Positions 12,777-27,901 of a stretch of DNA of 64,000 bases are shown here, piece after piece. The DNA comes from an uncultured delta proteobacterium (GTDB lineage: Bacteria > Myxococcota_A > Polyangia > Polyangiales > Polyangiaceae): NCBI GenBank assembly GCA_963782055.1, contig CAWAIF010000003.1:6048001-6112000 (forward strand), given 5' to 3'. The notes beneath the pieces were generated by a model, which did no database searches, was not told the origin of the DNA, and worked only from the letters and a program-made list of their open reading frames with translations. Made by a program: the position numbers and the translations under genes. How positions within the stretch are numbered: the first letter of the stretch is position 1; each line of letters begins with the position of its first letter.

Positions 12777-14465
12777 TTAAATCTCGATGTCCAGCCTCGC
12801 CGCGCCGACACGCAGCCCGCTCGCGGTGACGTGCAGCACGCCGCGCCCCTTCACCACGAAGCTCGCCACCCTGGACGCGCCGTTGCCCTTGCTCCGCATG
12901 TGGAAGATGCTCGCGCCGGAGTCGAAGAGGCCGCGGCCCCAGCCCTCCAGGTGCCCCAGCTCCACCCGCGCGTCACCGACGACCTCGCACCCCTCCGCGG
13001 CGACGTGCACGAAGACGCGCGCGTCGAGCGCCAGCTTCTTCGCCGAGGCGAGCACGTACGAGGGCAGGTAGCCCTCGTTTTCCACCACCAGGCGCACGCG
13101 CGTCACGCCGTCGCCCAGCGCCTCGGTATGTGTATGATGCACGCGAATCGCCGGCGCCATCGCCGCGACGCGCAGGAACGTCTTCGCCTGCTTCTCGCAA
13201 ACCTCGCCCAGCCGCTCGTACGGCGGGTTGGAGAGGCCCACGCGCATGTCCAGGCCGCCCACCTCCACCTCGCCGAGCTGCGGGTGGGTCACCTTCTTCC
13301 ACGGGCGAAAGACACGTCCCTTGTTCTTCTCGGCGTCCCACTTGGCGAAGCGGACGAGATCGTCGCGCGTGAGGAAGGCGTAGTGGTCGACGAAGGGCTT
13401 GCGGCGCGGGATGCCCAGCTCGCGGAACAGGTCCCAGATCTCCACCGTGTACCCGAGCGCCCCGCGCTGGTGATACGCGTAGTCGATCACGTCCCCGCGC
13501 AGCGGCTTGTCCGGCTCGTAGAGGAACTCGTGGTACCCGCTCACCGTGGGGTAGCCCCCGTACTGCTCCCCCCACGCCTCGATCTGCCGGTACACCGCCA
13601 GGTCGAAGGGCTCCATCTTGGAGTCGGGCGCGTTGCCGAGCGGGCGGATCTGCACCCCGCCGAAGGTGTGCAGGTCCAGCCACGCCACGATGTGCGGCCG
13701 CGCGCTGGTGAACTCCACCACCGCCCGCGACTCCGGCTCGCTCGTCGGGAAGCTCCCCGCGCCAATCTGCTCCGGCTCCGGCGCCCAGGCGTACGGGAAG
13801 TTGCGGTTCATGTCGGTGTCGTTGTCCGACAGGAAGTACGGGTCGGGGATGGTGTGGCCGTCGAAGTGCTCGATGATCCCCTCGGGGTAGACCTTGTAGA
13901 AGGGCCCGACGTCCTCCAGCGTGCGCGGCACGAGCACGCCGGGCGCCTCCTTCGACAGGGCGAACTCACCGGCGGGATCCGCCACGCGCATCACCAGCGA
14001 GACGCCGTTGCCGTCCACGTCCTTGCAGATCCAGCGCGGCGTCGGCGCGTGGTGGCGCCGGTCGCGGTCGTTGCTGCGCACGTAGCCGCCCGTCCGCAGG
14101 ATGGACTCCGCGCCGTCCGGCGAGATGCGCGGCATCACGTAGAAGAGCACCTCGCGCAGCCTCTCGCAGACATGCGCGGGCAGGTCGCGCACCGTCTGCG
14201 AGCCGGTGTGCAGGGCGATGACGTCCTCCGCCATCGCCAGCGCCACGCTCGATCCCGCCAGCTCGGAGGCGTGCATGTTGCCGCCGACCCACACCGCCGG
14301 GCGCGCGCGGTCCGGCTCCGGGCCGATGACCAGCACCCACAGGTCACGCCCGCCCGTCGACTTGCCGATGCTCTGCAGACGGACGTGGCCGGGGTGCTTT
14401 TTCGCCCAGTCCTGAAGCGTCCGGGTGATCTCGTCGTAGGTGAGGTAGTTCTCGCGGAAGGACAT
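12777..14465 (-). CDS. M14 zinc carboxypeptidase family
   Basis: SIGKSTGGRDLW, NMHASE (HxxE), PRISPDG, DMNRNFP, SEPESRAV, DLHTFGG. The real start is the ATG at 14465. Confidence 0.9.
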   Translation of the reverse strand: MSFRENYLTYDEITRTLQDWAKKHPGHVRLQSIGKSTGGRDLWVLVIGPEPDRARPAVWVGGNMHASELAGSSVALAMAEDVIALHTGSQTVRDLPAHVCERLREVLFYVMPRISPDGAESILRTGGYVRSNDRDRRHHAPTPRWICKDVDGNGVSLVMRVADPAGEFALSKEAPGVLVPRTLEDVGPFYKVYPEGIIEHFDGHTIPDPYFLSDNDTDMNRNFPYAWAPEPEQIGAGSFPTSEPESRAVVEFTSARPHIVAWLDLHTFGGVQIRPLGNAPDSKMEPFDLAVYRQIEAWGEQYGGYPTVSGYHEFLYEPDKPLRGDVIDYAYHQRGALGYTVEIWDLFRELGIPRRKPFVDHYAFLTRDDLVRFAKWDAEKNKGRVFRPWKKVTHPQLGEVEVGGLDMRVGLSNPPYERLGEVCEKQAKTFLRVAAMAPAIRVHHTHTEALGDGVTRVRLVVENEGYLPSYVLASAKKLALDARVFVHVAAEGCEVVGDARVELGHLEGWGRGLFDSGASIFHMRSKGNGASRVASFVVKGRGVLHVTASGLRVGAARLDIEI

Positions 14466-14467
14466 GC

Positions 14468-16000
14468 TCACACCGGCAGGACCATGTGCTTGCGCCGCGG
14501 CCGCCCCTCCACCTTGCCCGCGTAGCGCGCGAAGCGGGTGGCGATCTCCTTGCGGAGCCGCTCGCCAGGGACGACCGCGTCGATCACCAGCTCGCTCGCC
14601 AGCTTCATGATGTCGATGTCCTCGCGGTACTCGTCGCGCAGCTTCGCCACGAAGGCGTCGCGCTCCGGCCCGGCGGGGACCTCCTGGATCTTGTTGTAGT
14701 AGACCGCGTTGACCGCCGCCTGCGGCCCCATGACCGCGATGGAGGCGCTGGGCAGCGCGATGCACGCGTCCGGCTCGAAGGCGGGGCCGCACATGGCGTA
14801 GAGCCCGGCGCCGTAGGCCTTGCGCACCACCACCGAGAGCTTGGGCACCGTCGCCTCGCTCACCGCGGCGATCATCTTGGCGCCCGCGCGGATGATCCCC
14901 TGCCGCTCCACCTTGGTGCCGATCATGAAGCCGGGCACGTCGGCGAGGTACAGCAAGGGGATGTTGAAGGCGTCGCACAGCCAGATGAAGCGCGCAGCCT
15001 TGTCCGCCGAGTCGACGAAGAGCACGCCGCCCAGCCACTTGGGCTGGTTGGCGACGACGCCGACCACGCGCCCCTCGATCCGGGCGAGGCCGGTCAGGAT
15101 CTCCCGCGCGAAGAGCGCCTTGATCTCCAGCCAGGAGCCCTCGTCGATGATCTCGCGGATCACCGCCATCATGTCGAAGAACTTGTTCTCGTCGGCGGGG
15201 ATCAGCTCCTCGATGCGCTTGCCGCTCCTGGCGGGCGCGCGCGGCGCCACGTCCGGCGGCAGCCCCGCCTCGCTGGAGGGGAAGTAGGCGAGGTAGCGCT
15301 TGCAGAAGGCGATCGCCTCGTCCTCCGTCTTCACCAGCACGTCCCCGCAGCCGGAGACCGAGCAGTGCATCTTGGCGCCGCCCATCTCCTCCAGGGTCAC
15401 CTTCTCGCCGATCACCATCTCCGCCATGCGCGGCGAGCCGAGGTACATGGCGGCGTTGCCCTCCACCATCACCACGACGTCGCAGAAGGCGGGGATGTAC
15501 GCGCCGCCCGCGGCGCTCGGGCCGAAGAGCAGGCACACCTGAGGCACCTGCCCGCTGAGCTGTACCTCGTTGTAGAAGATGCGACCCGCGCCGCGTCGCC
15601 CGGGGAACATCTCGATCTGGTCGGTGATGCGCGCGCCGGCGGAGTCGACGAGGTAGAGCATGGGGACGCGCAGGTCTCGCGCCGTCTCCTGGATGCGGAG
15701 GATCTTCTCCACCGTGCGGCGGCCCCACGAGCCCGCCTTGATGGTGGAGTCGTTGGCCATGATCGCGACCGTTCGCCCCGCGACCATCGCCGTGCCGGTG
15801 ATCACGCCATCGGCGGCGAGCTCGGGGTCCAGGTTGTTCGCCAGCTCCGCGTCCTCGACGAAGCTCCCGGCGTCCACGAGCCGCGCGATGCGCTCCCGCG
15901 CGAAGAGCTTCCCCGCGTTGGCGTTCTTCTGGTGGTACTTCGGCGCGCCCCCCTTCTCCACGCGCTCCAGCGTTTCTTCGAGTTTCTTGCCTGCGGTCAT
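14468..16000 (-). CDS. acyl-CoA carboxylase carboxyltransferase (beta) subunit
   Basis: ARERIARLVD, DSAGARI, GPSAAGGAY, EMGGA, ADVPGFMIG, RKAYGAG, AVMGP. Confidence 0.95.
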   Translation of the reverse strand: MTAGKKLEETLERVEKGGAPKYHQKNANAGKLFARERIARLVDAGSFVEDAELANNLDPELAADGVITGTAMVAGRTVAIMANDSTIKAGSWGRRTVEKILRIQETARDLRVPMLYLVDSAGARITDQIEMFPGRRGAGRIFYNEVQLSGQVPQVCLLFGPSAAGGAYIPAFCDVVVMVEGNAAMYLGSPRMAEMVIGEKVTLEEMGGAKMHCSVSGCGDVLVKTEDEAIAFCKRYLAYFPSSEAGLPPDVAPRAPARSGKRIEELIPADENKFFDMMAVIREIIDEGSWLEIKALFAREILTGLARIEGRVVGVVANQPKWLGGVLFVDSADKAARFIWLCDAFNIPLLYLADVPGFMIGTKVERQGIIRAGAKMIAAVSEATVPKLSVVVRKAYGAGLYAMCGPAFEPDACIALPSASIAVMGPQAAVNAVYYNKIQEVPAGPERDAFVAKLRDEYREDIDIMKLASELVIDAVVPGERLRKEIATRFARYAGKVEGRPRRKHMVLPV

Positions 16001-16173: not shown

Positions 16174-17607
16174 ATGAGCTCGGTTCCGGGTCGGAAAGAC
16201 GGCGACGGCAGGGCACCCGCCGGGACCGACCCGAAGGAGCCCCGCAAGGAGCCGCGCACGCGCACGGCCCCGATGATGCCGGCCACGCAGGCGCCCCCGG
16301 CCGCGCCGCCCTCGCAGGAGCCGGCGGTCGTGGTCTCTCGCGTGCTGGACGTGGGGCCGCCGCTCGTCCCGCGCCATCGCCCCCAGGCCCCGCCCCCGGA
16401 GGCGCCGCCGCCGGTGCCGCCGCCCCCGCCCGTGCCCGCCGTGGCGGTCCCGCCGGTGCGCTCGGCGGCCGCGACCCTCGGCGCGATGCCGGCGATGCGC
16501 CCGCGCGCGCCCACGCTCATCGACTCCACGCCCCCACCCGCGCAGCCCCCGCGCGGCGCGCCGGAGGCCCCCCCGCCCTCGACACGCCACGGCCGTCCGG
16601 CCGCGCCGCCGGTCGACGTCGAGCTCCCGCCCAGCGAGAGCCTCTGGGACAGCGTGGAGGCCCTGCTCGACGACGTCGACGCCGGCTTCGGCGCCATCAT
16701 GGATGGCCCGCCCAACACGCTGCGCGACCCGCAGACGGGCGGGGCGGTGCCCGGTACCGGGATGAAGTCCCCGAGCGGCGGGATGTCCGGCGCGCGTGAG
16801 CTCTTCGCGCAGCTCGCCACCTCGCACGTCCGGCACGTGCGCGACTTCATGATCGACGTGAAGTCCGGCCAGGCCACCGCCGACTGGCTGCCCATCTGCG
16901 AGCCGGCGGTGCGCTCGGTGCGGCAGATGGCCGAGCAGCTCGACCTGCCGGAGCTGTGCAAGGGCCTGGACGGCTACCTCGCCGCGCTCAAGACCGCCGC
17001 GGAGGAGTCCGGCTTCTCGGTGGACGGCATGGTGCGCGACCTGTTGCTCGCCGCCTACGAGCCGCTCGTCACGGCGATGCCCTCCGCCTTCGGCCTGGAC
17101 GCGGTCAAGAGCCGCCGCGAGGGGATCATCGTGCAGTCGCTGCTGTTGCAGATCCCCGACGTGCGCAAGGTCACCATCGACAAGCTCTACGCCAACGGCC
17201 TGACGGCCCTCGACGCCTTCTTCCTCGCCAAGGCGGACGAGATCGCCCTGACGACAGGCATCGACCGCGCCATCGCCGAGAAGATCGTGGACCGCTTCGC
17301 CCGCTACAAGAAGGAGCTGCAAGGCGGCGCGCTGGACGAGGCACGCAGCTTCGAGCACAAGCGCCTGGACGAGCTCGCGGGCGAGCTCGCCACCCAGCAG
17401 GCCGCCTTCGAGGAGGCGGAGCGCAAGGACGAGTCGAGCAAGAAGCGCGCGGCGCGCAAGGCGCGCGAGGCCGTGCTGCTGGAGGTCAAGGTCCTGATGG
17501 CCCGCCTCGGCGAGGTCGAGCGCGTCAACGTCATCGAGCGTCTGCCCTTCTCCAAGAAGGTGGCGGAGCTCCGGAAGTACCTCGAAGAAGCCAGGGAGCG
17601 AACGTGA
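16174..17607 (+). CDS. Pro-rich N-terminus + HPt-like helical bundle + helix-hairpin-helix + coiled-coil protein
   Basis: Low-complexity Pro-rich N-terminus, then AVRSVRQMAEQLDLPEL (HPt-like, no His), LLQIPDVRKVTIDKL..TGIDRAIAEKI (HhH) and a charged coiled coil. Start uncertain. Confidence 0.7.
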   Translation: MSSVPGRKDGDGRAPAGTDPKEPRKEPRTRTAPMMPATQAPPAAPPSQEPAVVVSRVLDVGPPLVPRHRPQAPPPEAPPPVPPPPPVPAVAVPPVRSAAATLGAMPAMRPRAPTLIDSTPPPAQPPRGAPEAPPPSTRHGRPAAPPVDVELPPSESLWDSVEALLDDVDAGFGAIMDGPPNTLRDPQTGGAVPGTGMKSPSGGMSGARELFAQLATSHVRHVRDFMIDVKSGQATADWLPICEPAVRSVRQMAEQLDLPELCKGLDGYLAALKTAAEESGFSVDGMVRDLLLAAYEPLVTAMPSAFGLDAVKSRREGIIVQSLLLQIPDVRKVTIDKLYANGLTALDAFFLAKADEIALTTGIDRAIAEKIVDRFARYKKELQGGALDEARSFEHKRLDELAGELATQQAAFEEAERKDESSKKRAARKAREAVLLEVKVLMARLGEVERVNVIERLPFSKKVAELRKYLEEARERT

Positions 17608-17613
17608 GGGGAC

Positions 17614-18867
17614 ATGCCCGAACTTACGCGTGAGCAGCTCGAGACCAAGGCGGCGGCAGGCGAGAAGCTGGACCGCTCCGACCAGCGCGGTGCGCAGCTC
17701 CAGGGCGTCAAGCTCGCCGGCGCGAGCATGCGCCGGTCGGACTTCGAGGGCGCCAACCTGGAGGGCGCCAACCTCTCCAAGGTGAACCTGAAGAACGCCA
17801 GCCTGCGCGAGGCGTACCTCGCCGGCGCGGACCTGCGGGAGGCCAACCTGGAGAGCGCCGACTTCGAGGGCGCCAACCTGCAGAAGGCGAACCTCTCCGG
17901 GTGCAACCTGGGTCGCGCCAACCTGGAGGGCGCCGACCTCACCGGCGCCAACCTGCGCGGGGCGAAGCTCGCCCACGCCCAGCTCGACTCCGCCAACCTG
18001 GGCGGGGCCGACATCTCCGGCGCCGACCTCTCCCGCTGCGACCTGGTCGAGTGCTACCTGGGCGGCGTCAAGGCGCTCAAGGCGGACCTCTCCGGCGCCA
18101 ACCTGGAGGAGGCCAACCTGGAGGAGGGCGACTTCGCCGAGGCGAACTTCGACGACGCGCAGCTCCCCGGCGTGGGCGCCACCGCGACGAAGTTCGGCCG
18201 GGCGAGCTTCGTCAAGGCGGACTTCACCGGCGCCAACCTGGTGCGCGCCGACTTCTCCGGCGCCGACCTGCGCAAGGCGAACCTGGAGAAGGCCAGGCTG
18301 GAGGACACCATCCTCAGCGGCGCGCGCATCGCCGGCCTGGTCACGAAGGGCGCCACCATCGGCAAGGTGACGATCGACTGGGCGAACATCAGCCCGGAGG
18401 ACACCGGCAGCAAGCGCGCCCAGGGTGACGCCGCGCTCGCCGCGCTCACCGGCAAGGAGCCGGAAGGCGGGGTTCGCTCCAAGCACGTACGCTACTTCGG
18501 CGCGGGCGACGTGCTGCGCTTCGCCGCGCTGGAGTTCGACGCGGGTGCCAGCGTGGAGATCGAGAGCCGCTTCGAGCAGTGCTCCATCGCCCTGGGCGAC
18601 GGCACCGAGCTCGTCGTCGGGAGCGAGGGCGTGCTCGCGGGGTGCAACATCAAGGGGGCGGGCAACATCACCATCCACGGCCAGTTCTTCGAGGGCGGCG
18701 ACGCCCCCGGCATCGTCGGCCCCAGGCGCCTCATCGTGACCACCGGAGGCGTGATGGTGGGCTCGGTCGTGCAGCAAGGGGAGCAAGGCACCGAGTTCGG
18801 TTTCGAGCCGGGCAGCAGGCTCCGCATGAAGATCACACGTAACGCCGGTAAGAATGGGAGGCCGTAA
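17614..18867 (+). CDS. pentapeptide-repeat protein with C-terminal bactofilin-like domain
   Basis: Roughly 45 A(N/D)LxG-type pentapeptides, then LVVGSEGVLAGCNIKGAGNITIHG..LIVTTGGVMVGSV..FGFEPGSRLRMKI, matching the bactofilin beta-helix pattern. Confidence 0.85.
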   Translation: MPELTREQLETKAAAGEKLDRSDQRGAQLQGVKLAGASMRRSDFEGANLEGANLSKVNLKNASLREAYLAGADLREANLESADFEGANLQKANLSGCNLGRANLEGADLTGANLRGAKLAHAQLDSANLGGADISGADLSRCDLVECYLGGVKALKADLSGANLEEANLEEGDFAEANFDDAQLPGVGATATKFGRASFVKADFTGANLVRADFSGADLRKANLEKARLEDTILSGARIAGLVTKGATIGKVTIDWANISPEDTGSKRAQGDAALAALTGKEPEGGVRSKHVRYFGAGDVLRFAALEFDAGASVEIESRFEQCSIALGDGTELVVGSEGVLAGCNIKGAGNITIHGQFFEGGDAPGIVGPRRLIVTTGGVMVGSVVQQGEQGTEFGFEPGSRLRMKITRNAGKNGRP

Positions 18868-19299
18868 ATGAGCGACGCGTCGGAGAAGAAGACTCTGGTG
18901 GAAGAAGGCACCGAGTTCAAAGGCTCGCTGACCTCGAAGTGCCCCGTCGAAGTGCGCGGCAAGGTCGAGGGCGACCTCGCGGCGCCTTCGCTCCACGTCA
19001 GCGACTCGGGCGCCGTGCACGGCAAGGTCCGCGTCGAGCGGCTCGAATCGAGCGGCGAGATCTCTGGTGAGTTCGACGCCGACGCCATCCACCTCTCGGG
19101 CGTGGTGAAGGACAACACCGTGATCCGCGCCAAGACGCTGGAGGTCCGCCTCGCCCCGCCGAGCGGCAACAAGATGCAGGTCATCTTCGGAGAGGTCGCG
19201 ATCGACGTGGGCGACGCCCCCGCGAAGGAGGCCTCCTCCGGCAAGAAGAAGGGACGCGAGAAGGAAGAGGACAACAAGAGCGTTCCGCCTCCCGGCTGA
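18868..19299 (+). CDS. bactofilin (polymer-forming cytoskeletal protein)
   Basis: TLVEEGTEFKGSL..VEVRGKVEGDL..LHVSDSGAVHGKV..GEISGEFDA; the ATG directly follows the upstream TAA. Confidence 0.88.
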   Translation: MSDASEKKTLVEEGTEFKGSLTSKCPVEVRGKVEGDLAAPSLHVSDSGAVHGKVRVERLESSGEISGEFDADAIHLSGVVKDNTVIRAKTLEVRLAPPSGNKMQVIFGEVAIDVGDAPAKEASSGKKKGREKEEDNKSVPPPG

Positions 19300-19469
19300 G
19301 CCTCCCCCAGGCTACGGGCCCGCGGGCTCCAGGCTCCGGCCCTGCGCGAGCTCGGAGCCCGGCGCTGGATCGCGGCCTGTCCATCCCCGCTGCCCACCTT
19401 CCCCTTCGCGCCACCCTGCCGCTCTCACCAACCCGCAGGAATTCGGCATGTACATTGTAACGCCTTGAC

Positions 19470-19485
19470 TGGCGCCCCATTTGCA
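19470..19485 (+). promoter_or_regulatory. sigma54-type -24/-12 promoter
   Basis: TGGCGCCCCATTTGCA with GG-N10-GC and TTGCA, about 45 nt upstream of the ATG at 19531. Confidence 0.65.
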
Positions 19486-19530
19486 GCGAGGACCCTCGCT
19501 CCAGGGTTCGCTGCCAGCGGGACGAGGGTC

Positions 19531-20298
19531 ATGACGCATCACTTTGCTCGGTTTGCTTTCTTTGCGTCCTTCGCGGCCATCGGCGGCTGCGCCACCGGCA
19601 TCCTGCCCATCGGCGACGGAGACGGCGGGGTGGTGGTGCGCGACGGCGGCTCGCACGGCGGCGACGGGGGCACCAACGGCACCGACGGCGGGAGCAACGG
19701 CTGCGGCAGCTGCCCCGCCGGGGCCACCTGCGTGAACGGCGCCTGCGAGTGTCAGGGCGGCAAGATGATGTGCGGCAACACCTGCGTCGACACGCAGAGC
19801 GACGCCAACAACTGCGGCCAGTGCGACAACGTCTGCGGTGCAGACGCCGGGGGGGGCGGCGGCACCTGGGGCTGCAACGCGGGGCAGTGCCAGCTCGGGT
19901 GCACGGGCAACGAGACCGCCTGCAACGGGACCTGCGTCGACACCTCCACCGACACGAACAACTGCGGCACCTGCGGCAACTCGTGCGGGTCGGGGGAGTG
20001 CTGCAACGGGACGTGCGCCGACACGACGAGCGACCAGAACAACTGCGGCACCTGCGGCAACTCGTGCAACGGGCAGAGCTGCGTGAACAGCCAGTGCTGC
20101 GCCAGCCCGCCGACGGGCAACTGCTCGCACGCGCTCTGCACGCAGGGCAGCTACCTCAACGACCTGTGCGACCCCGCCGGCTGCGTCGACACCGTCTGCT
20201 TCTACGACGACTACTGCTGCTACTACGGCTGGGACAGCGCCTGCGTGGACGAGGTCACGCAGTACTGCCAACCGTACAGCTGCAACGGCGGCTGCTGA
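19531..20298 (+). CDS. Cys-rich lipoprotein with CVDxxxDxxNCGxC repeats
   Basis: Lipobox AIGGC, three repeats, and a C-terminal CSHALC..DDYCCYYGWDSACVDEV module. Confidence 0.8.
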   Translation: MTHHFARFAFFASFAAIGGCATGILPIGDGDGGVVVRDGGSHGGDGGTNGTDGGSNGCGSCPAGATCVNGACECQGGKMMCGNTCVDTQSDANNCGQCDNVCGADAGGGGGTWGCNAGQCQLGCTGNETACNGTCVDTSTDTNNCGTCGNSCGSGECCNGTCADTTSDQNNCGTCGNSCNGQSCVNSQCCASPPTGNCSHALCTQGSYLNDLCDPAGCVDTVCFYDDYCCYYGWDSACVDEVTQYCQPYSCNGGC

Positions 20299-20317
20299 GG
20301 CGGCCGGCGGCGGCTCC

Positions 20318-21691
20318 TCACCCGCCGCAGGTGCTGGCGCACTCCGACGTGCACGCGACCTGGCAGAAGCAGCTCGCTCGCGCGTTGTAGTCGCTGATGC
20401 CGTTCGCGTAGCTGTTCGCGCAGTTCTGGCTGCAGGTGCTGTCGCCGTTGCACCCACCGAGACAGCTCGTGAGGTCGGCGCAGTCGGGGTTGTTGTCGCA
20501 GGTCTGCGCCTCCGACGCGCACGCGCCGCTCACCGCGTCGGTGATGCACTGGTCGCAGGTCTGCGTGGTGCCCGACTGGCAGCTCCCGGCCACGCACGAC
20601 TCGCCCCCGCCGCAGGCGTTGCCGCACTTGCCGCAGTTGTTCTGGTCGCTCGAGGTGTCGACGCACGCGCCACCACACATGGCGCCGCCGGTGGTGCACC
20701 CCTGGAAGGAGGTGGACTCGGTGGAGAAGGTGGTGACCTGGACCCAGCCCTCCTTCTGCTCGTGCGCCGTGCTCATCGAACCCTTGGTGGCGATGCCCTT
20801 CTTGGTGTCGACGCGCTGGCGTGAGACCGACACGCCGAGCGTGGAGGACGGGCCGAGCACCTCGTTCACCAGGTCGCGCGCGACGTCGTACTCGCCGGCG
20901 GAGTCCTTCGCCTTGCATGTGGCGGTGCCGCCCGCGCCGGAGAGGGTGATGACGATGGAGTCGTCCCCCGCGGTCCACTGCACCGGCAGCGCGTCGCTGC
21001 CGAAGACCTTCGCCTTGGTGAGCTGACCGAGCTGGGTCTGCAGGAGCGTCGTCGCCGTCACGCTCTGCGACCACGCGGAGAAGCCGGTGGCTGCGGCCCC
21101 GGACGCCTGGACGGTGATGGACGCGCCGGGCACGAAGGGGGCGCCCGTCGTCGGGCCGGAGTACTTGTACGGCGGGTAGAGCGTGATGGGGACCGACGTG
21201 CCGGCGAAGGCCACCGGCCCGGAGTCGAAGGTCTCGACCGCCCGGCACTCCGGGTCCGCGCCCGGGCTCGGGAAGTAGCACTCCTCGCCGTCGCCGCAGG
21301 ACTTGCTGCACGTCTTGGTGCACGTGGGCTGGCAGGAGTCGTTGTACGAGCACACCTCGCCCACGCCGCAGGCCGTGGCGCACTTGGGGGCGGTGACGAT
21401 CTCGCAGCCGTCCATCGCGGTGGAGCACTTCTTCGCGGCGGTGGAGTCCGGGATGAAGCCGACCGAGACGACGGGGGCGACCGTGCCGGTGGTGCTGGTG
21501 CTGTGCGCCTCGCCGAGCAGGACCGTTCCCAGGGCGTGCGGGGGACCCGCCGTCGGGTCGTCGCTGGAGCCGAAGTTGTTGGCCGTGGCGCACGCGACGA
21601 GGGCGATGGCGCCGAAGAGGGACAGGCCGAGGTTCCGCGCGTAGCGCGGGCCGGCCCCAAGGACGCGGGGAGTGGTCAGTGAGGGGCGCAT
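20318..21691 (-). CDS. Cys-rich lipoprotein
   Basis: Lipobox ALVAC, Cys-rich ends including CVDTSSDQNNCGKCGNAC, central beta-rich region; GGAGG upstream. Confidence 0.8.
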   Translation of the reverse strand: MRPSLTTPRVLGAGPRYARNLGLSLFGAIALVACATANNFGSSDDPTAGPPHALGTVLLGEAHSTSTTGTVAPVVSVGFIPDSTAAKKCSTAMDGCEIVTAPKCATACGVGEVCSYNDSCQPTCTKTCSKSCGDGEECYFPSPGADPECRAVETFDSGPVAFAGTSVPITLYPPYKYSGPTTGAPFVPGASITVQASGAAATGFSAWSQSVTATTLLQTQLGQLTKAKVFGSDALPVQWTAGDDSIVITLSGAGGTATCKAKDSAGEYDVARDLVNEVLGPSSTLGVSVSRQRVDTKKGIATKGSMSTAHEQKEGWVQVTTFSTESTSFQGCTTGGAMCGGACVDTSSDQNNCGKCGNACGGGESCVAGSCQSGTTQTCDQCITDAVSGACASEAQTCDNNPDCADLTSCLGGCNGDSTCSQNCANSYANGISDYNARASCFCQVACTSECASTCGG

Positions 21692-21840
21692 GAGTTCGAA
21701 TCCTCCGGGTCCCAGGTACGTGCAGGTGGGTGGATTCTTCCCTCGGCATTGCACTTTTCCCGGCCCCCTTGGCTTGCCCCGCAAATCGGCTAGGGTTGCG
21801 GCGCTTGGCGGGGACCCCGGCCCCGCCCCCGGAGGCTTTC

Positions 21841-23859
21841 ATGCGCTCGACCTCGAACAGGCTGCTCGCCCTCGGCGCGGCGCTCGCCCTCGTGTCCATC
21901 TTCTTCGCCATGTCGGGCTGCGGGGTGCGTTCGCCCCTGGACGACGGCATCCTCTCCGGGGACGGCGGCGTGAACGGCGACGGCGGCCCGTGCGGCCCAG
22001 GCACGCAGGTCTGCAACGGCACCTGCACCGTCACCGACTTCGACCCGAACAACTGCGGCGGCTGCGGGACGGCCTGCGCCCAGGGGCAGTCGTGCGTGGG
22101 GGGCACGTGCACCACCAGCGAGTGCAACGGTGGCTCGACCAAGTGCGGCGACCTCTGCGTGGACACGCAGAACGATCCGGCCAACTGCGGCGGCTGCGCC
22201 CAGAGCTGCCCCGTCGGGCAGGTGTGCTCCGCCGGCAAGTGCGACCTCGCCTGCAACGGCGGCACGACCAAGTGCGGGAACCTGTGCGTCGACGTGCAGA
22301 GCGATCCGAAGAACTGCGGCTTCTGCGGCAACACCTGCCCGGACAACCTGGTGTGCACGCAGGGCGGCTGCAACACGACCTGCCTGGGCGGCACCACGCA
22401 GTGCGGCCAGGCGTGCGTGGACCTGAAGGTGGATCCCTCCAACTGCGGCAAGTGCGGCAACGCGTGCCCCGGCGGGCAGGTATGCTCGGCGGGGCAGTGC
22501 GCGGTCACGTGCGCGCAGGGCCTGACCAAGTGCGGGAACTTCTGCGTCGACACGCAGAACGACCAGAAGAACTGCGGGCAGTGCGGCTTCGTCTGCTCGG
22601 GGACGGACAAGTGCATCACCGGCAAGTGCACCAAGTGCGACAGCGCCACGACCGACTGCGACGGCGACGGGTGGACCGTGGCGGAGGGTGACTGCTGCGA
22701 TCAGCCGGGGCCGTGCGGGTCGGAGCCGGAGCTGGTGAACCCCGGCGCGGTGGAGGTCGTGGGCAACGGCATCGACGACAACTGCAACGGCCTCGTCGAC
22801 CTCTTCGACGACACCGACACGCAGCCGTGCGACAAGGGGCTGGCGGCCAACACCACCAACGCGGTCGACTTCGCCAAGGCGATCGGCATCTGCCGGCAGA
22901 CCACGGCGAACCCGCCGCAGAAGAAGGACAAGACCTGGGGCCTGCTCTCCGCCAAGCTCGTGCGGGCGGACGGCACCGCGCTCACCGACCAGAGCGGCCA
23001 CTCCATCCGCACCAAGTTCGGGCAGAACATCCTGCCGCTGAACGGACAGTCGCTCGCCGTGCTCTCCAGCGGGCTCGCCTCCGACGCGACGCAGACGACG
23101 CCCGGGCCCAACGGGGGGGCGCCGGGCGGCAACAACGTCAGCTACGCCTTCAACCCGAACAGCAACGTCAACATCTCGACCTGCAACGACTCGCTGTGCA
23201 TCAAGGACTGGCTGAAGACGGCGAACCCGCCGCTGAAGGCGGCCAACCAGCTGCCGCAGGCGCCCAACTGCGGCAACATCACGCAGCCGTCCAATGCCCA
23301 CGACTCGGTCATGCTGGTGCTCACCCTGCGCGCCCCCACCAACGCGCGCGCCTTCTCCTTCAACTCCTACTTCTTCTCGGCGGAGTTCCCGGAGTACGTG
23401 TGCACCGCCTACAACGACCAGTTCATCGCGCTGGTGGACACGCCGAACGGCACGCCCTCGCCCATCGCCAACCCGGTGGACAAGAACCTGATGACCTTCA
23501 CCCAGAACAACAAGAAGTGGCCGGTGGCGATCAACATCGCGAGCGGCACCAGCGTGTTCTCGGTGTGCGACGCCGCGTCGAAGAGCCAGCAGTGCCAGGG
23601 CACGCAGGTGAGCAACATCTCCTGCGGGCTGGGGGCGACGCAGCTCGACGGCACCGGCTTCGAGAAGCCGAACGCAGGCAACTGCCTGGTCGGCGGCGGC
23701 ACCTACTGGCTGACCACCGCGGGCAACGTCATTCCGGGGGACACGGTCCAGCTCCGCATCGCGATCTGGGACGTGAGCGACAACATCTACGACTCGCTCG
23801 CCCTCATCGACGGCTTCCAGTGGCTCGCCAACGCGACGCTGCCGGGCACGTCGAACTAG
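21841..23859 (+). CDS. Cys-rich surface lipoprotein: repeats + MopE-like metal-binding motif + choice-of-anchor-L-like domain
   Basis: GGAGG RBS, lipobox MSGC, five CxxxC(V/T)xxxxDxxNCG repeats, DCDGDG..NPGAVEVVGNGIDDNCNG, SAEFPEYVC..YNDQF, IWDVSD..DS. Confidence 0.85.
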   Translation: MRSTSNRLLALGAALALVSIFFAMSGCGVRSPLDDGILSGDGGVNGDGGPCGPGTQVCNGTCTVTDFDPNNCGGCGTACAQGQSCVGGTCTTSECNGGSTKCGDLCVDTQNDPANCGGCAQSCPVGQVCSAGKCDLACNGGTTKCGNLCVDVQSDPKNCGFCGNTCPDNLVCTQGGCNTTCLGGTTQCGQACVDLKVDPSNCGKCGNACPGGQVCSAGQCAVTCAQGLTKCGNFCVDTQNDQKNCGQCGFVCSGTDKCITGKCTKCDSATTDCDGDGWTVAEGDCCDQPGPCGSEPELVNPGAVEVVGNGIDDNCNGLVDLFDDTDTQPCDKGLAANTTNAVDFAKAIGICRQTTANPPQKKDKTWGLLSAKLVRADGTALTDQSGHSIRTKFGQNILPLNGQSLAVLSSGLASDATQTTPGPNGGAPGGNNVSYAFNPNSNVNISTCNDSLCIKDWLKTANPPLKAANQLPQAPNCGNITQPSNAHDSVMLVLTLRAPTNARAFSFNSYFFSAEFPEYVCTAYNDQFIALVDTPNGTPSPIANPVDKNLMTFTQNNKKWPVAINIASGTSVFSVCDAASKSQQCQGTQVSNISCGLGATQLDGTGFEKPNAGNCLVGGGTYWLTTAGNVIPGDTVQLRIAIWDVSDNIYDSLALIDGFQWLANATLPGTSN

Positions 23860-26156: not shown

Positions 26157-27455
26157 ATGCTCGCGTCGTTCTCCGTCGCGAATTTCAAGAGTTACAAGCT
26201 CGCCAAGCTGCCGCTGGCGCCGCTCACGGTGCTCGTCGGCGCGAACGCATCGGGGAAGAGCAACCTGATCGAGGCGATGCAGCTCCTTTCGTGGCTCGCG
26301 CATGGTCGGCGCTTGCCCGACCTCTCGGCGGCGATGAAGGCGGGTGAGGTCGCGATCCGCGGGCTACTACCCGACCTCCCCCTCGATCCCTCTCTTCCCA
26401 TCTGCCTTGGCTGCGAGCTCGACGAGCCCGGAGGGCCTCGCCTCGAGCTGGAACTCCGCACCGATAACGGCGGCCCGCGCATCGTGGGCGAAGAGCTGCT
26501 AGTGGACGACGAAGCGTCGAGTGTCCCCTACTACTACCGCATCGATGCGCCTGCTCCGGAGCATGGCAGCGAAGTCCAGGTCGCCTACAACAACTTCTCC
26601 CGCGGCAAGAACAAGCCTCACATTGCGTGCGTCGATCAGCAGGCGATCTTCACCCAGCTCCTGACGCCGGCCAGGTTCGCGAACGAGACGTCGCAGCAGA
26701 AGATCCCGACCGCGGCCACAACCGTCGCGAGCGCGCTCGCCTCGACGCTCTTCCTCGACCCGAACCCGAAGGAGATGCGAGGGTGGGCCTATGCCGACGA
26801 GCAAGAGCTGCGCGGTAGCGGCGCCAACGTCTCCTCGACGTTGAATCGCCTCTGCAACCAGGGCCAGAAGGAAGCGATCCTCTCCTTCGTGCGGGCGCTG
26901 CCCGAGCAAGACATCACTGACATCGGGTTCCTCACGACGGCACGGAACGAGGTGATGGTTCAGCTCACCGAAACCTTCGGTGGGCGCCTGGGGAGCTCGG
27001 ATGCGGCCGTGCTCTCCGACGGAACCCTCCGCGTCCTCGCGGTTGCGGCCGCAGTTCTCTCGGTGGACGAAGGGTCGCTCGTGGTCATCGAGGAGATCGA
27101 CAATGGGGTACACCCGAACCGGGCGCAGATGCTCCTCGAGGCGCTCCATACCACCGCGCGCAAGCGGAACCTTCGGGTCCTACTCACCACGCACAACCCC
27201 GCCCTCGCCGACGCCACGCCAAAGCGGGCGATCCCCGACGTGGTCGCCTGCTATCGCGATCCGGAGTCAGGGCTGAGCTGCTTGCAGCGCCTGTCCGACC
27301 TCGAGGACTACGCGGCCCTCGTGGCGCAGGGACCGCTCGGGTTCCTCCTGCAGAGCGGGACGCTGGACCGGTATCTCAAGCGACAACGAGACGGAACAGC
27401 GCGCGAGCGCGAGAGCCAGGAGGTGTTGCAGCTCTTCCGCAGGATGGGGCAGTGA
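26157..27455 (+). CDS. ABC-type ATPase of the AAA_21/AbiEii-like group
   Basis: NFKSY, Walker A GANASGKSN, signature LSDGTLR, Walker B VIEEIDNGVHP, H-loop LTTHNP; no transmembrane segments. Confidence 0.9.
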   Translation: MLASFSVANFKSYKLAKLPLAPLTVLVGANASGKSNLIEAMQLLSWLAHGRRLPDLSAAMKAGEVAIRGLLPDLPLDPSLPICLGCELDEPGGPRLELELRTDNGGPRIVGEELLVDDEASSVPYYYRIDAPAPEHGSEVQVAYNNFSRGKNKPHIACVDQQAIFTQLLTPARFANETSQQKIPTAATTVASALASTLFLDPNPKEMRGWAYADEQELRGSGANVSSTLNRLCNQGQKEAILSFVRALPEQDITDIGFLTTARNEVMVQLTETFGGRLGSSDAAVLSDGTLRVLAVAAAVLSVDEGSLVVIEEIDNGVHPNRAQMLLEALHTTARKRNLRVLLTTHNPALADATPKRAIPDVVACYRDPESGLSCLQRLSDLEDYAALVAQGPLGFLLQSGTLDRYLKRQRDGTARERESQEVLQLFRRMGQ

Positions 27456-27901
27456 CGATCTGCATCGTCGACACCAGCATCCTCGACGAGCTGCTCAACG
27501 TACCCGGAAAGGCGAACCACCACGTGGAGACGCTCAAGGACTACGAGGCGAAGCAGAAAGGGAGAGAGCAGTTCCTGGTGCCCGTGGCGGTGATGATCGA
27601 GACGGGGAACCACATCGCGCACGCGAGCGAGGGCGATGTACGTCGCAGTCGCGCGGAGGCCTTCGTGGAATTCGTGCGACGGGCACTTGATGGCACGAGC
27701 CCGTTCACTCCCACGCCGTTCCCGGACGACGCGGCGCTACGCAGTTGGCTCGGCGACTTCCCGGATCATGCGATGCGCAGGATCGGTCTGGCCGATCGGA
27801 GCCTCATCGCGCTGTGGCACGAGCAACAGGAGCTCCATCGCCGGAGGCGTGTGTACATCTGGGCGCTGGATGCGGAACTGGCCTCGCGGGACACCGGGTG
27901 A
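27452..27901 (+). CDS. PIN-domain nuclease
   Basis: GTGA overlap with the ATPase stop. IVDTSIL, IETGNHI, GLADRSL and IWALDAEL supply the four acidic positions typical of PIN. Confidence 0.75.
   Translation: MTICIVDTSILDELLNVPGKANHHVETLKDYEAKQKGREQFLVPVAVMIETGNHIAHASEGDVRRSRAEAFVEFVRRALDGTSPFTPTPFPDDAALRSWLGDFPDHAMRRIGLADRSLIALWHEQQELHRRRRVYIWALDAELASRDTG

Follow-up and report, generated by a model that had tools for sequence, protein, structure and literature searches.

What do three short, tightly packed genes of an uncultured myxobacterium build when the second of them joins a long pentapeptide-repeat array to a C-terminal domain that escapes sequence libraries? The question is raised by a 64,000-nucleotide (nt) stretch of a Polyangiaceae genome (assembly GCA_963782055.1, contig CAWAIF010000003.1, positions 6,048,001 to 6,112,000), here called the window, that carries gene 1 (P0001, 16174..17607, plus strand, 477 amino acids [aa]), gene 2 (P0002, 17614..18867, plus strand, 417 aa), and gene 3 (P0003, 18868..19299, plus strand, 143 aa). 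A preliminary description of this DNA, made from the sequence alone, had proposed a new cytoskeletal system; the close packing and shared orientation that it reported were borne out, with intergenic gaps of 6 and 0 nt. We find that gene 1 encodes a probable adaptor, gene 2 a pentapeptide-repeat rod fused to a domain that is very probably a divergent bactofilin fold, and gene 3 a bactofilin in which the N-tail is short and polar and the last winding is remodelled. The reading that we favor, with a probability of roughly 0.6, is that the trio encodes an accessory bactofilin scaffold of two unlike subunits, tethered by gene 1, that positions partner proteins. All three genes are under purifying selection: measured against six close loci, the ratios of nonsynonymous to synonymous substitution rates (dN/dS), which are affected by a high third-position GC content that depresses dS, ranged from 0.12 to 0.48 (gene 2 domain, 0.12 to 0.26; gene 3, 0.14 to 0.25; rod, 0.18 to 0.35; gene 1, 0.32 to 0.48). 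A pattern search gave no match to a sigma-70 promoter or to a plus-strand terminator.

The C-terminal domain of gene 2 is predicted to have a bactofilin fold

The C-terminal ~120 residues of gene 2 had no Pfam or NCBIfam match. An AlphaFold2 model of residues 293 to 408 (18490..18837, plus strand), based on an alignment of 63 rows, had a mean confidence (pLDDT) of 90.9 and consisted of a run of short strands forming six windings. When this model was searched against 48,161 chains, BacA (2n3d) was the top match (Z 13.8, root mean square deviation [rmsd] 2.2, 103/103 residues aligned) and TtBac the second (Z 13.0, rmsd 1.5, 89/90 aligned); the next fold after the bactofilins was TibA (Z 11.0), and pentapeptide proteins reached Z 9.0. 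Alignment to the filament structure 6rib with VIA-align gave Z 14.6 (rmsd 1.9, 101/101), and Foldseek ranked TtBac (6ria) first, at an E value of only 0.057 (prob 1.00). ESM Atlas scores of 0.76 to 0.78 were taken as leads only. On the strength of this model, the C terminus of gene 2 very probably adopts the bactofilin fold, as had been proposed from sequence motifs that are indeed present.

By sequence, the domain forms a closed family of 168 clusters (E ≤ 0.001 among 1.84 billion representatives), in the longer members of which pentapeptide repeats nearly always precede it. A sequence search of the PDB returned only beta-helices at E ≥ 0.78. The genome encodes four canonical bactofilins, three in tandem (G000:C2:237612-238615) and one alone (G000:C3:2805844-2806134), and a weak alignment with these was collinear over 82 columns and placed L403 over the Phe of their last winding. 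The last winding of gene 2 (residues 393 to 409; 18790..18840, plus strand) was of the canonical type in 73/73 rows, and L403 was invariant; in the register of a weak profile alignment, it is the hydrophobic residue at the tail-interface position of F105 in TtBac. The first winding is the most conserved stretch of the domain, which would fit a second interface. A bactofilin-fold domain here appears to escape sequence libraries and, if the assignment is right, the Pfam family leaves some bactofilin-fold proteins unrecognized.

Gene 3 has a rebuilt tail and is predicted to pair with gene 2

Gene 3 had been taken for a canonical bactofilin, a label that it does not retain: it reaches the PF04519 cut-off (50.6 bits versus 27.9), but the match covers profile positions 1 to 87 of 98 and the last winding is remodelled. 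The same model scored 73.5 to 95.9 bits, above the score of gene 3, on the four other bactofilins of the genome, with which the first five windings of gene 3 align (hhalign, 91%). In the last winding (residues 90 to 118; 19135..19221, plus strand), F107 and G115 are invariant; the canonical pattern with its self-pairing Phe was found in 0/73 gene 3 rows, and 69/73 shared a conserved pattern of their own. The N-terminal membrane-targeting peptide, which passages of PMC12448750 describe as typical of bactofilins and not universal, was absent from gene 3, with 0/123 tails starting with MF; F, W, L, or I occurred within the first four residues of 21/123 tails, mostly as Leu after Asp. One genome (G019) carries an orphan second gene 3 copy (L200:5376-6491) that is shortened inside the last winding and has no gene 2 within 10 kb.

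Because the tails of gene 2 are of the canonical type and those of gene 3 are rebuilt, a heterotypic tail-to-tail contact was expected ahead of complex prediction. Predicted as a 1:1 heterodimer, the gene 2 domain and gene 3 scored an ipSAE of 0.80, compared with 0.00 for the best control in a set that held no canonical paralogue. The mark used for this score was reached by 116/157 solved and 2/215 mismatched pairs, a calibration that is rough here because our own alignments were used. Contacts agreed between runs to at least 91%, and the partner had a pLDDT of 86. The predicted interface joins residues 393 to 409 of gene 2 to residues 90 to 96 and 104 to 118 of gene 3, with L403 contacting residues 91 and 112 to 114, and the contact order implies antiparallel strands. 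According to this model, gene 2 and gene 3 are likely to bind tail to tail; it is for this pair that co-assembly, proposed earlier for the products of all three genes, gained the support of a prediction. Two further measures were set aside. Mutual information over 73 paired rows (effective number, 41) was dropped, as even within-domain contacts were not recovered, and a distance-matrix correlation of 0.74 reflects shared ancestry.

Bactofilins polymerize only by pairing heads with heads and tails with tails, as stated in passages of bioRxiv 10.1101/617639, and heterotypic tails would therefore give either a 2-3-3-2 copolymer or, if the head of gene 2 is blocked, a rod-capped finite complex (a tetramer). 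Both are compatible with the predicted geometry.

The three genes are conserved together in two bacterial phyla

Linkage was assessed in the best 80 of 184 matches in GTDB genomes and in the best 80 of 425 matches to a divergent clade in metagenomes, the latter being partly redundant. Gene 3 lay downstream of gene 2 in 79/79 genome loci with enough flank and in 73/74 metagenome loci, and gene 1 lay upstream in 75/76 and 44/45, respectively, so that the co-conservation foreseen for the proposed system was found. The genome of the sole exception among the 76 has the full trio elsewhere. Genome G351 has a full trio and, in addition, another pair of gene 2 and gene 3 that lacks gene 1 (L093, L211). 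Two further loci depart from the usual arrangement: in L140, genes 1 and 2 are present and the next 2.2 kb downstream contain no gene 3; in L135, gene 2 is shortened, its N-terminal part is unrelated, and gene 1 is absent. Among 61 related genomes, the gene 2 domain was present in 17, gene 1 in 16, and gene 3 in 18, differences that are explained by G030, which has no gene 1, and by G024, in which gene 3 lies at a contig start.

Fusions were found among 219 proteins: eight link parts of gene 1 with gene 2, and in four a complete gene 3 is joined to gene 2, on separate branches of a tree that was made by a quick method from 122 columns, left 52 of 107 branches open, and was used only to show that the fusions are scattered. 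Three of the fusions have a second member of the cluster, and at three loci a single frame spans gene 1 and gene 2, with gene 3 coming after it.

The closest named loci among the best 80 of 184 belong to Polyangiaceae, and Minicystis rosea (locus L047) is a cultured carrier. The gene 2 domain was detected in 5/301 genomes of the phylum of the window, in a scan that scored 14 candidates per genome and may miss weak homologues, and in 26/151 genomes of the class Blastocatellia. Ten Blastocatellia loci had gene 3 downstream of gene 2 in 10/10 cases and gene 1 upstream in 9/10, the tenth stopping at a contig edge. The trio thus occurs in many soil myxobacteria (Polyangia) and in some acidobacteria (Blastocatellia).

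Gene 2 carries an acidic rod of stepped length

The N-terminal part of gene 2 comprises 48 pentapeptide units in 12 coils (residues 17 to 256; 17662..18381, plus strand), where ~45 had been counted earlier; the long array as such was confirmed (PF00805, 196.6 bits), and 44 of 50 frames fit the pattern in one register compared with 0 to 4 in the other four. It is followed by a C-cap and a variable linker (residues 257 to 292; 18382..18489, plus strand), the last conserved Trp lying 29 to 53 residues ahead of the domain across 90 loci. Rod length was stepped, with 48 units in 68/90 loci and 40 units in 18/90 (10 or 12 coils in 86/90). The acidic character attributed to the rod holds modestly, since net charge was negative in 90/90 homologous rods (median, −10) and is about −6 in the window. 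A rod from which two coils can be lost, and whose cap and linker to the domain vary in length, would fit a spacer or docking arm. Named pentapeptide models all missed their cut-offs except a generic 113-position Alr5209 model (139 bits versus 125).

Gene 1 has the makings of an adaptor

In a model of residues 148 to 477 of gene 1 (pLDDT 89.1), a short helix comes first, then a four-helix bundle and an (HhH)2 domain, and a helical bundle comes last. The preceding region is Pro-rich and disordered, and its start sequence is the same in close relatives. Within it, a short conserved beta-strand-like motif (residues 50 to 61; 16321..16356, plus strand) was present in 16/92 homologues (shuffle maximum, 1), by a pattern devised after the sequences had been inspected. 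An acidic-aromatic motif around F172 (residues 161 to 176; 16654..16701, plus strand) has F in 216/233 rows and recurs in the N-terminal extension of 9/17 extended gene 2 homologues (≥4.8 bits; reversed controls, ≤2.0). One clade of gene 2 homologues combines this motif with an N-terminal zinc ribbon (L198:564-2258 of G030, P0072, P0073, P0083, P0086, P0092, and P0098); with no gene 1 match in G030, it looks as if the N-terminal region of gene 1 had been grafted onto gene 2.

The four-helix bundle (residues 202 to 304; 16777..17085, plus strand) had CheA P1 (1tqg) as its top structural match (Z 11.8, rmsd 3.0, 101 residues aligned), and 5 of the first 50 rows were CheA P1 entries. Profile matches were 1tqg at E 0.14 and 2ld6 at E 0.17; Foldseek with the gene 1 model gave nothing at E ≤ 0.001, and a single-sequence search of the PDB with the bundle gave no match. 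The phospho-acceptor column, in a register taken from a weak alignment, holds His in 4/233 rows and Arg (R247) in the window. Together these results are suggestive of a CheA P1/HPt-like bundle that lacks the phospho-accepting His, so that for the "pseudo-HPt" of the preliminary description the support was weak but concordant.

The (HhH)2 domain is of the RadA/Rad51 N-terminal type (residues 323 to 375; 17140..17298, plus strand). PF14520 (HHH_5) matched it at 22.7 bits (E 1.4e-4), below the 27-bit cut-off, 58/63 homologues matched at E ≤ 1, and a RadA N-terminal domain profile matched at E 1.5e-5. Helix-hairpin-helix domains that bind DNA combine a Gly-hydrophobic-Gly hairpin with a basic surface. 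Here, the two hairpin positions hold Gly in 36/233 and 37/233 rows and the median net charge is +1, and the link of the HhH domain to DNA that had been suggested was therefore not supported. The C-terminal helical bundle (residues 385 to 476; 17326..17601, plus strand) had generic helical structural matches only. No ParB-family match was found in gene 1 with Pfam or NCBIfam.

The N termini of gene 1 are modular. Removal of duplicates from 98 sequences left 92 distinct homologues whose upstream frame is intact. A hydrophobic-basic peptide starts 41 of these, a zinc ribbon starts 20, and 32 have neither, one long frame carrying both; the patterns were devised after inspection, with shuffle means of 0.24 for the peptide and 0 for the zinc ribbon. 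The peptide resembles the membrane-targeting consensus of bactofilins given in a part of PMC12448750. As it is present in gene 1 homologues and absent from gene 3, we infer that gene 1 supplies the targeting signal in trans. From the fusions and the linkage, it is reasonably likely that gene 1 is part of the complex, as a predicted adaptor that binds the rod or the bactofilin part. Proteins of ~1,250 aa that end in a whole gene 1 module were also found (L206:2263-6087, L207:1621-5619, L208:1711-5661, and L209:2240-5935); they have almost no Pfam match and form an unannotated family, of which G349 and G350 each encode two members. Shorter stand-alone paralogues of the module lie at L205, L210, and L212.

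The trio is an accessory module

Three genomes of the same genus, 92 to 98% complete, lacked the trio at the matching site and kept four canonical bactofilins. Since it is missing from near-complete sister genomes, the trio is an accessory module. Presence within the genus was patchy (3/6 genomes) and neighborhoods varied, with the site fixed within the genus beside a carboxyl-transferase gene. No fourth conserved gene was found in the 80 genome loci (heuristic gene calls) or among 50 neighbors of 14 metagenome loci.

In the window, the minus strand at 12777 to 16000 carries the carboxyl-transferase gene and an M14 carboxypeptidase gene, and in several close relatives the trio adjoins the carboxyl-transferase gene. 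At 19465 to 23859 lie three genes for Cys-rich, probably secreted repeat proteins, two of which were scanned and both gave STIG1-like matches. On a by-eye reading, a stretch of lower GC content at 26157 to 27901 holds an ATPase-like open reading frame (ORF) followed by a short ORF that resembles a PIN-type partner.

Proposed mechanism and alternatives

We propose that the trio specifies a self-contained scaffold. Gene 2 would place a 10- or 12-coil acidic rod ahead of a divergent domain of the bactofilin type, the tail winding of which would match the rebuilt tail of gene 3, and tail-to-tail stacking of the two domains would produce a single continuous beta-helix. The outcome would be a strictly alternating copolymer with regularly spaced rods or the finite complex capped by rods. 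Gene 1 would act as adaptor or tether and, in most homologues, bring a targeting signal in the form of a membrane peptide or a zinc ribbon, and its non-phosphorylatable HPt-like bundle, HhH domain, and acidic motif may be protein-docking surfaces. The likely job would be the positioning of partner proteins at the membrane or a pole, as other bactofilins do; such a role seems somewhat preferable to one on DNA. A stricter version, in which the pair is obligate because neither tail self-pairs, gene 2 is either a size-fixing end-cap or the alternate periodic subunit, and the anchor has moved to the adaptor, is tentative and falls a little short of even odds. If true, the obligate pair would be a built-in control of length and periodicity in a nucleotide-free cytoskeletal polymer.

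Several results weigh against the two-subunit scaffold. By sequence, homology of the gene 2 domain to bactofilins was barely detectable: PF04519 had no match in the window protein and matched 1/63 family members at E 0.003, and hhalign gave 5.5% against gene 3 and 7.5% against the four canonical paralogues, neither significant. A tail-to-tail bactofilin interface is already solved (6rib), and the passing complex score may stem from this likeness. G030, which is 96% complete, has genes 2 and 3 but no gene 1 (~2.9 kb upstream without it), and at least two fusions (P0078, P0112) are probably read-through artefacts. The gene 1 module is also found apart from bactofilins, either on its own or as the last part of the 1,250-aa proteins, and gene 1 of the window itself carries no membrane peptide and no zinc ribbon, like 32/92 homologues. 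No conserved neighbor in the loci analyzed names a client of the scaffold.

The bactofilin pair might serve only to localize gene 1, with the bundle and the acidic motif of the latter binding receiver domains or polarity regulators. This is compatible with the scaffold reading and would shift its function to chemosensory or polarity signaling. Structural comparison ranks CheA P1 first for the bundle, sequence comparison gives a weak match to it over the same residues, a PF13240-type zinc ribbon starts 20/92 gene 1 homologues and some gene 2 homologues, and the gene 1 module recurs on other proteins. There are precedents in Myxococcus xanthus, in which the zinc ribbon of GltJ binds MglB (a passage of PMC11135422) and BacP positions the GTPase SofG (a passage of PMC5703909). 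However, Z 11.8 is within the usual range of the tool for common helical bundles, hhalign of the bundle to the genome's own HPt domains gave 0.6%, no recurrent chemosensory or GTPase gene lay beside the trio in the loci examined, and PMC11135422 also states that the ligands of zinc ribbons vary. We consider this alternative rather unlikely. Still less probable is a DNA-mimic or nucleoid device, in which the acidic rod acts on gyrase like MfpA or Qnr and the HhH domain ties the filament to DNA. It could draw on the charge and stepped length of the rods, on the resemblance of the HhH domain to that of RadA, and on a divergent clade that keeps one hairpin Gly in 31/32 rows; the scarcity of hairpin Gly residues in the full set and the near-neutral charge argue against it. 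The topoisomerase link raised in the preliminary description was likewise not supported, as Qnr-family and MfpA models scored 48 to 84 bits on gene 2 versus cut-offs of 240 to 500 and no ParAB, topoisomerase, or repair gene was present among the 50 neighbors scanned, and the genome has its separate three-bactofilin cluster.

The near-canonical head of gene 3 could instead join the filaments of the housekeeping bactofilins, with the gene 2-gene 3 pair capping or decorating them. The alignment of the first five windings with the canonical paralogues would allow this, and BacNOP of M. xanthus co-assemble, whether they mix being left open in the relevant passage of PMC5703909. Yet in the loci examined the trio was never encoded beside canonical paralogues, and sister genomes lose the trio while keeping these bactofilins, so that we regard such a modifier as very improbable. 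A mobile or antiphage cassette, which would suit the patchy presence, varied neighborhoods, and occurrence in two phyla, is scarcely credible: PADLOC returned 0 families for 4/4 queries, there was no match in 72,556 plasmid records, 50,697 phage records, or IMG/VR, the trio has no catalytic domain, and its site within the genus is fixed.

Comparison with known systems

In agreement with the preliminary description, which knew of no described system of this architecture, no published account of the trio was found in open-access PMC and bioRxiv; the sole paper there with both "bactofilin" and "pentapeptide repeat" (PMC12475490) is unrelated. The bactofilin surveys of PMC12448750 and bioRxiv 10.1101/617639 rest on annotated domains and could list gene 3 homologues.

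Canonical bactofilins (T. thermophilus TtBac, 6rib and 6ria; C. crescentus BacA, 2n3d; PF04519), which assemble into non-polar filaments with no need of nucleotides, share with the trio the six-winding right-handed beta-helix, in the gene 2 domain by model and in gene 3 by Pfam, and the predicted tail-to-tail stacking resembles the C-C interface described in part of bioRxiv 10.1101/617639. The predicted interface differs in joining unlike subunits, one with a rebuilt tail winding, and the trio further differs in that the gene 2 domain is invisible to Pfam and sits on a pentapeptide rod, and in that gene 3 has no membrane-targeting N-tail. With pentapeptide-repeat proteins (PF00805; Qnr, MfpA, and HetL), gene 2 has in common a long, regular, net-acidic repeat, but it ends in a predicted bactofilin domain and misses the named family cut-offs except that of Alr5209. 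The possible likeness of gene 1 to CheA P1/HPt would lie in a four-helix bundle that is comparable in size and register, whereas gene 1 has no phospho-accepting His and no kinase or CheW domain.

The nearest functional parallel is with BacNOP-PadC of M. xanthus (PMC5703909), which likewise combines several bactofilins in an operon with a dedicated adaptor, co-assembles, and is auxiliary and not essential. Gene 1, however, is not ParB-like, no ParA link was found among the neighbors scanned, and the docking arm here would be a folded rod in place of a disordered tail; the separate three-gene bactofilin cluster of this genome can be called BacNOP-like by arrangement only. The same paper leaves open by what means bactofilin assembly is regulated in the absence of nucleotides, and whether mixed polymers arise from paralogues. 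With small subunits, conserved tails that match, and a predicted interface open to disruption by single substitutions, the gene 2-gene 3 pair would be a clean test of both questions, and the trio would show that a pentapeptide rod can serve a scaffold as its arm and that a membrane peptide can be provided in trans. The trio looks to work like a bactofilin-adaptor scaffold and yet is not BacNOP-PadC, each of its parts failing one defining feature of its nearest family.

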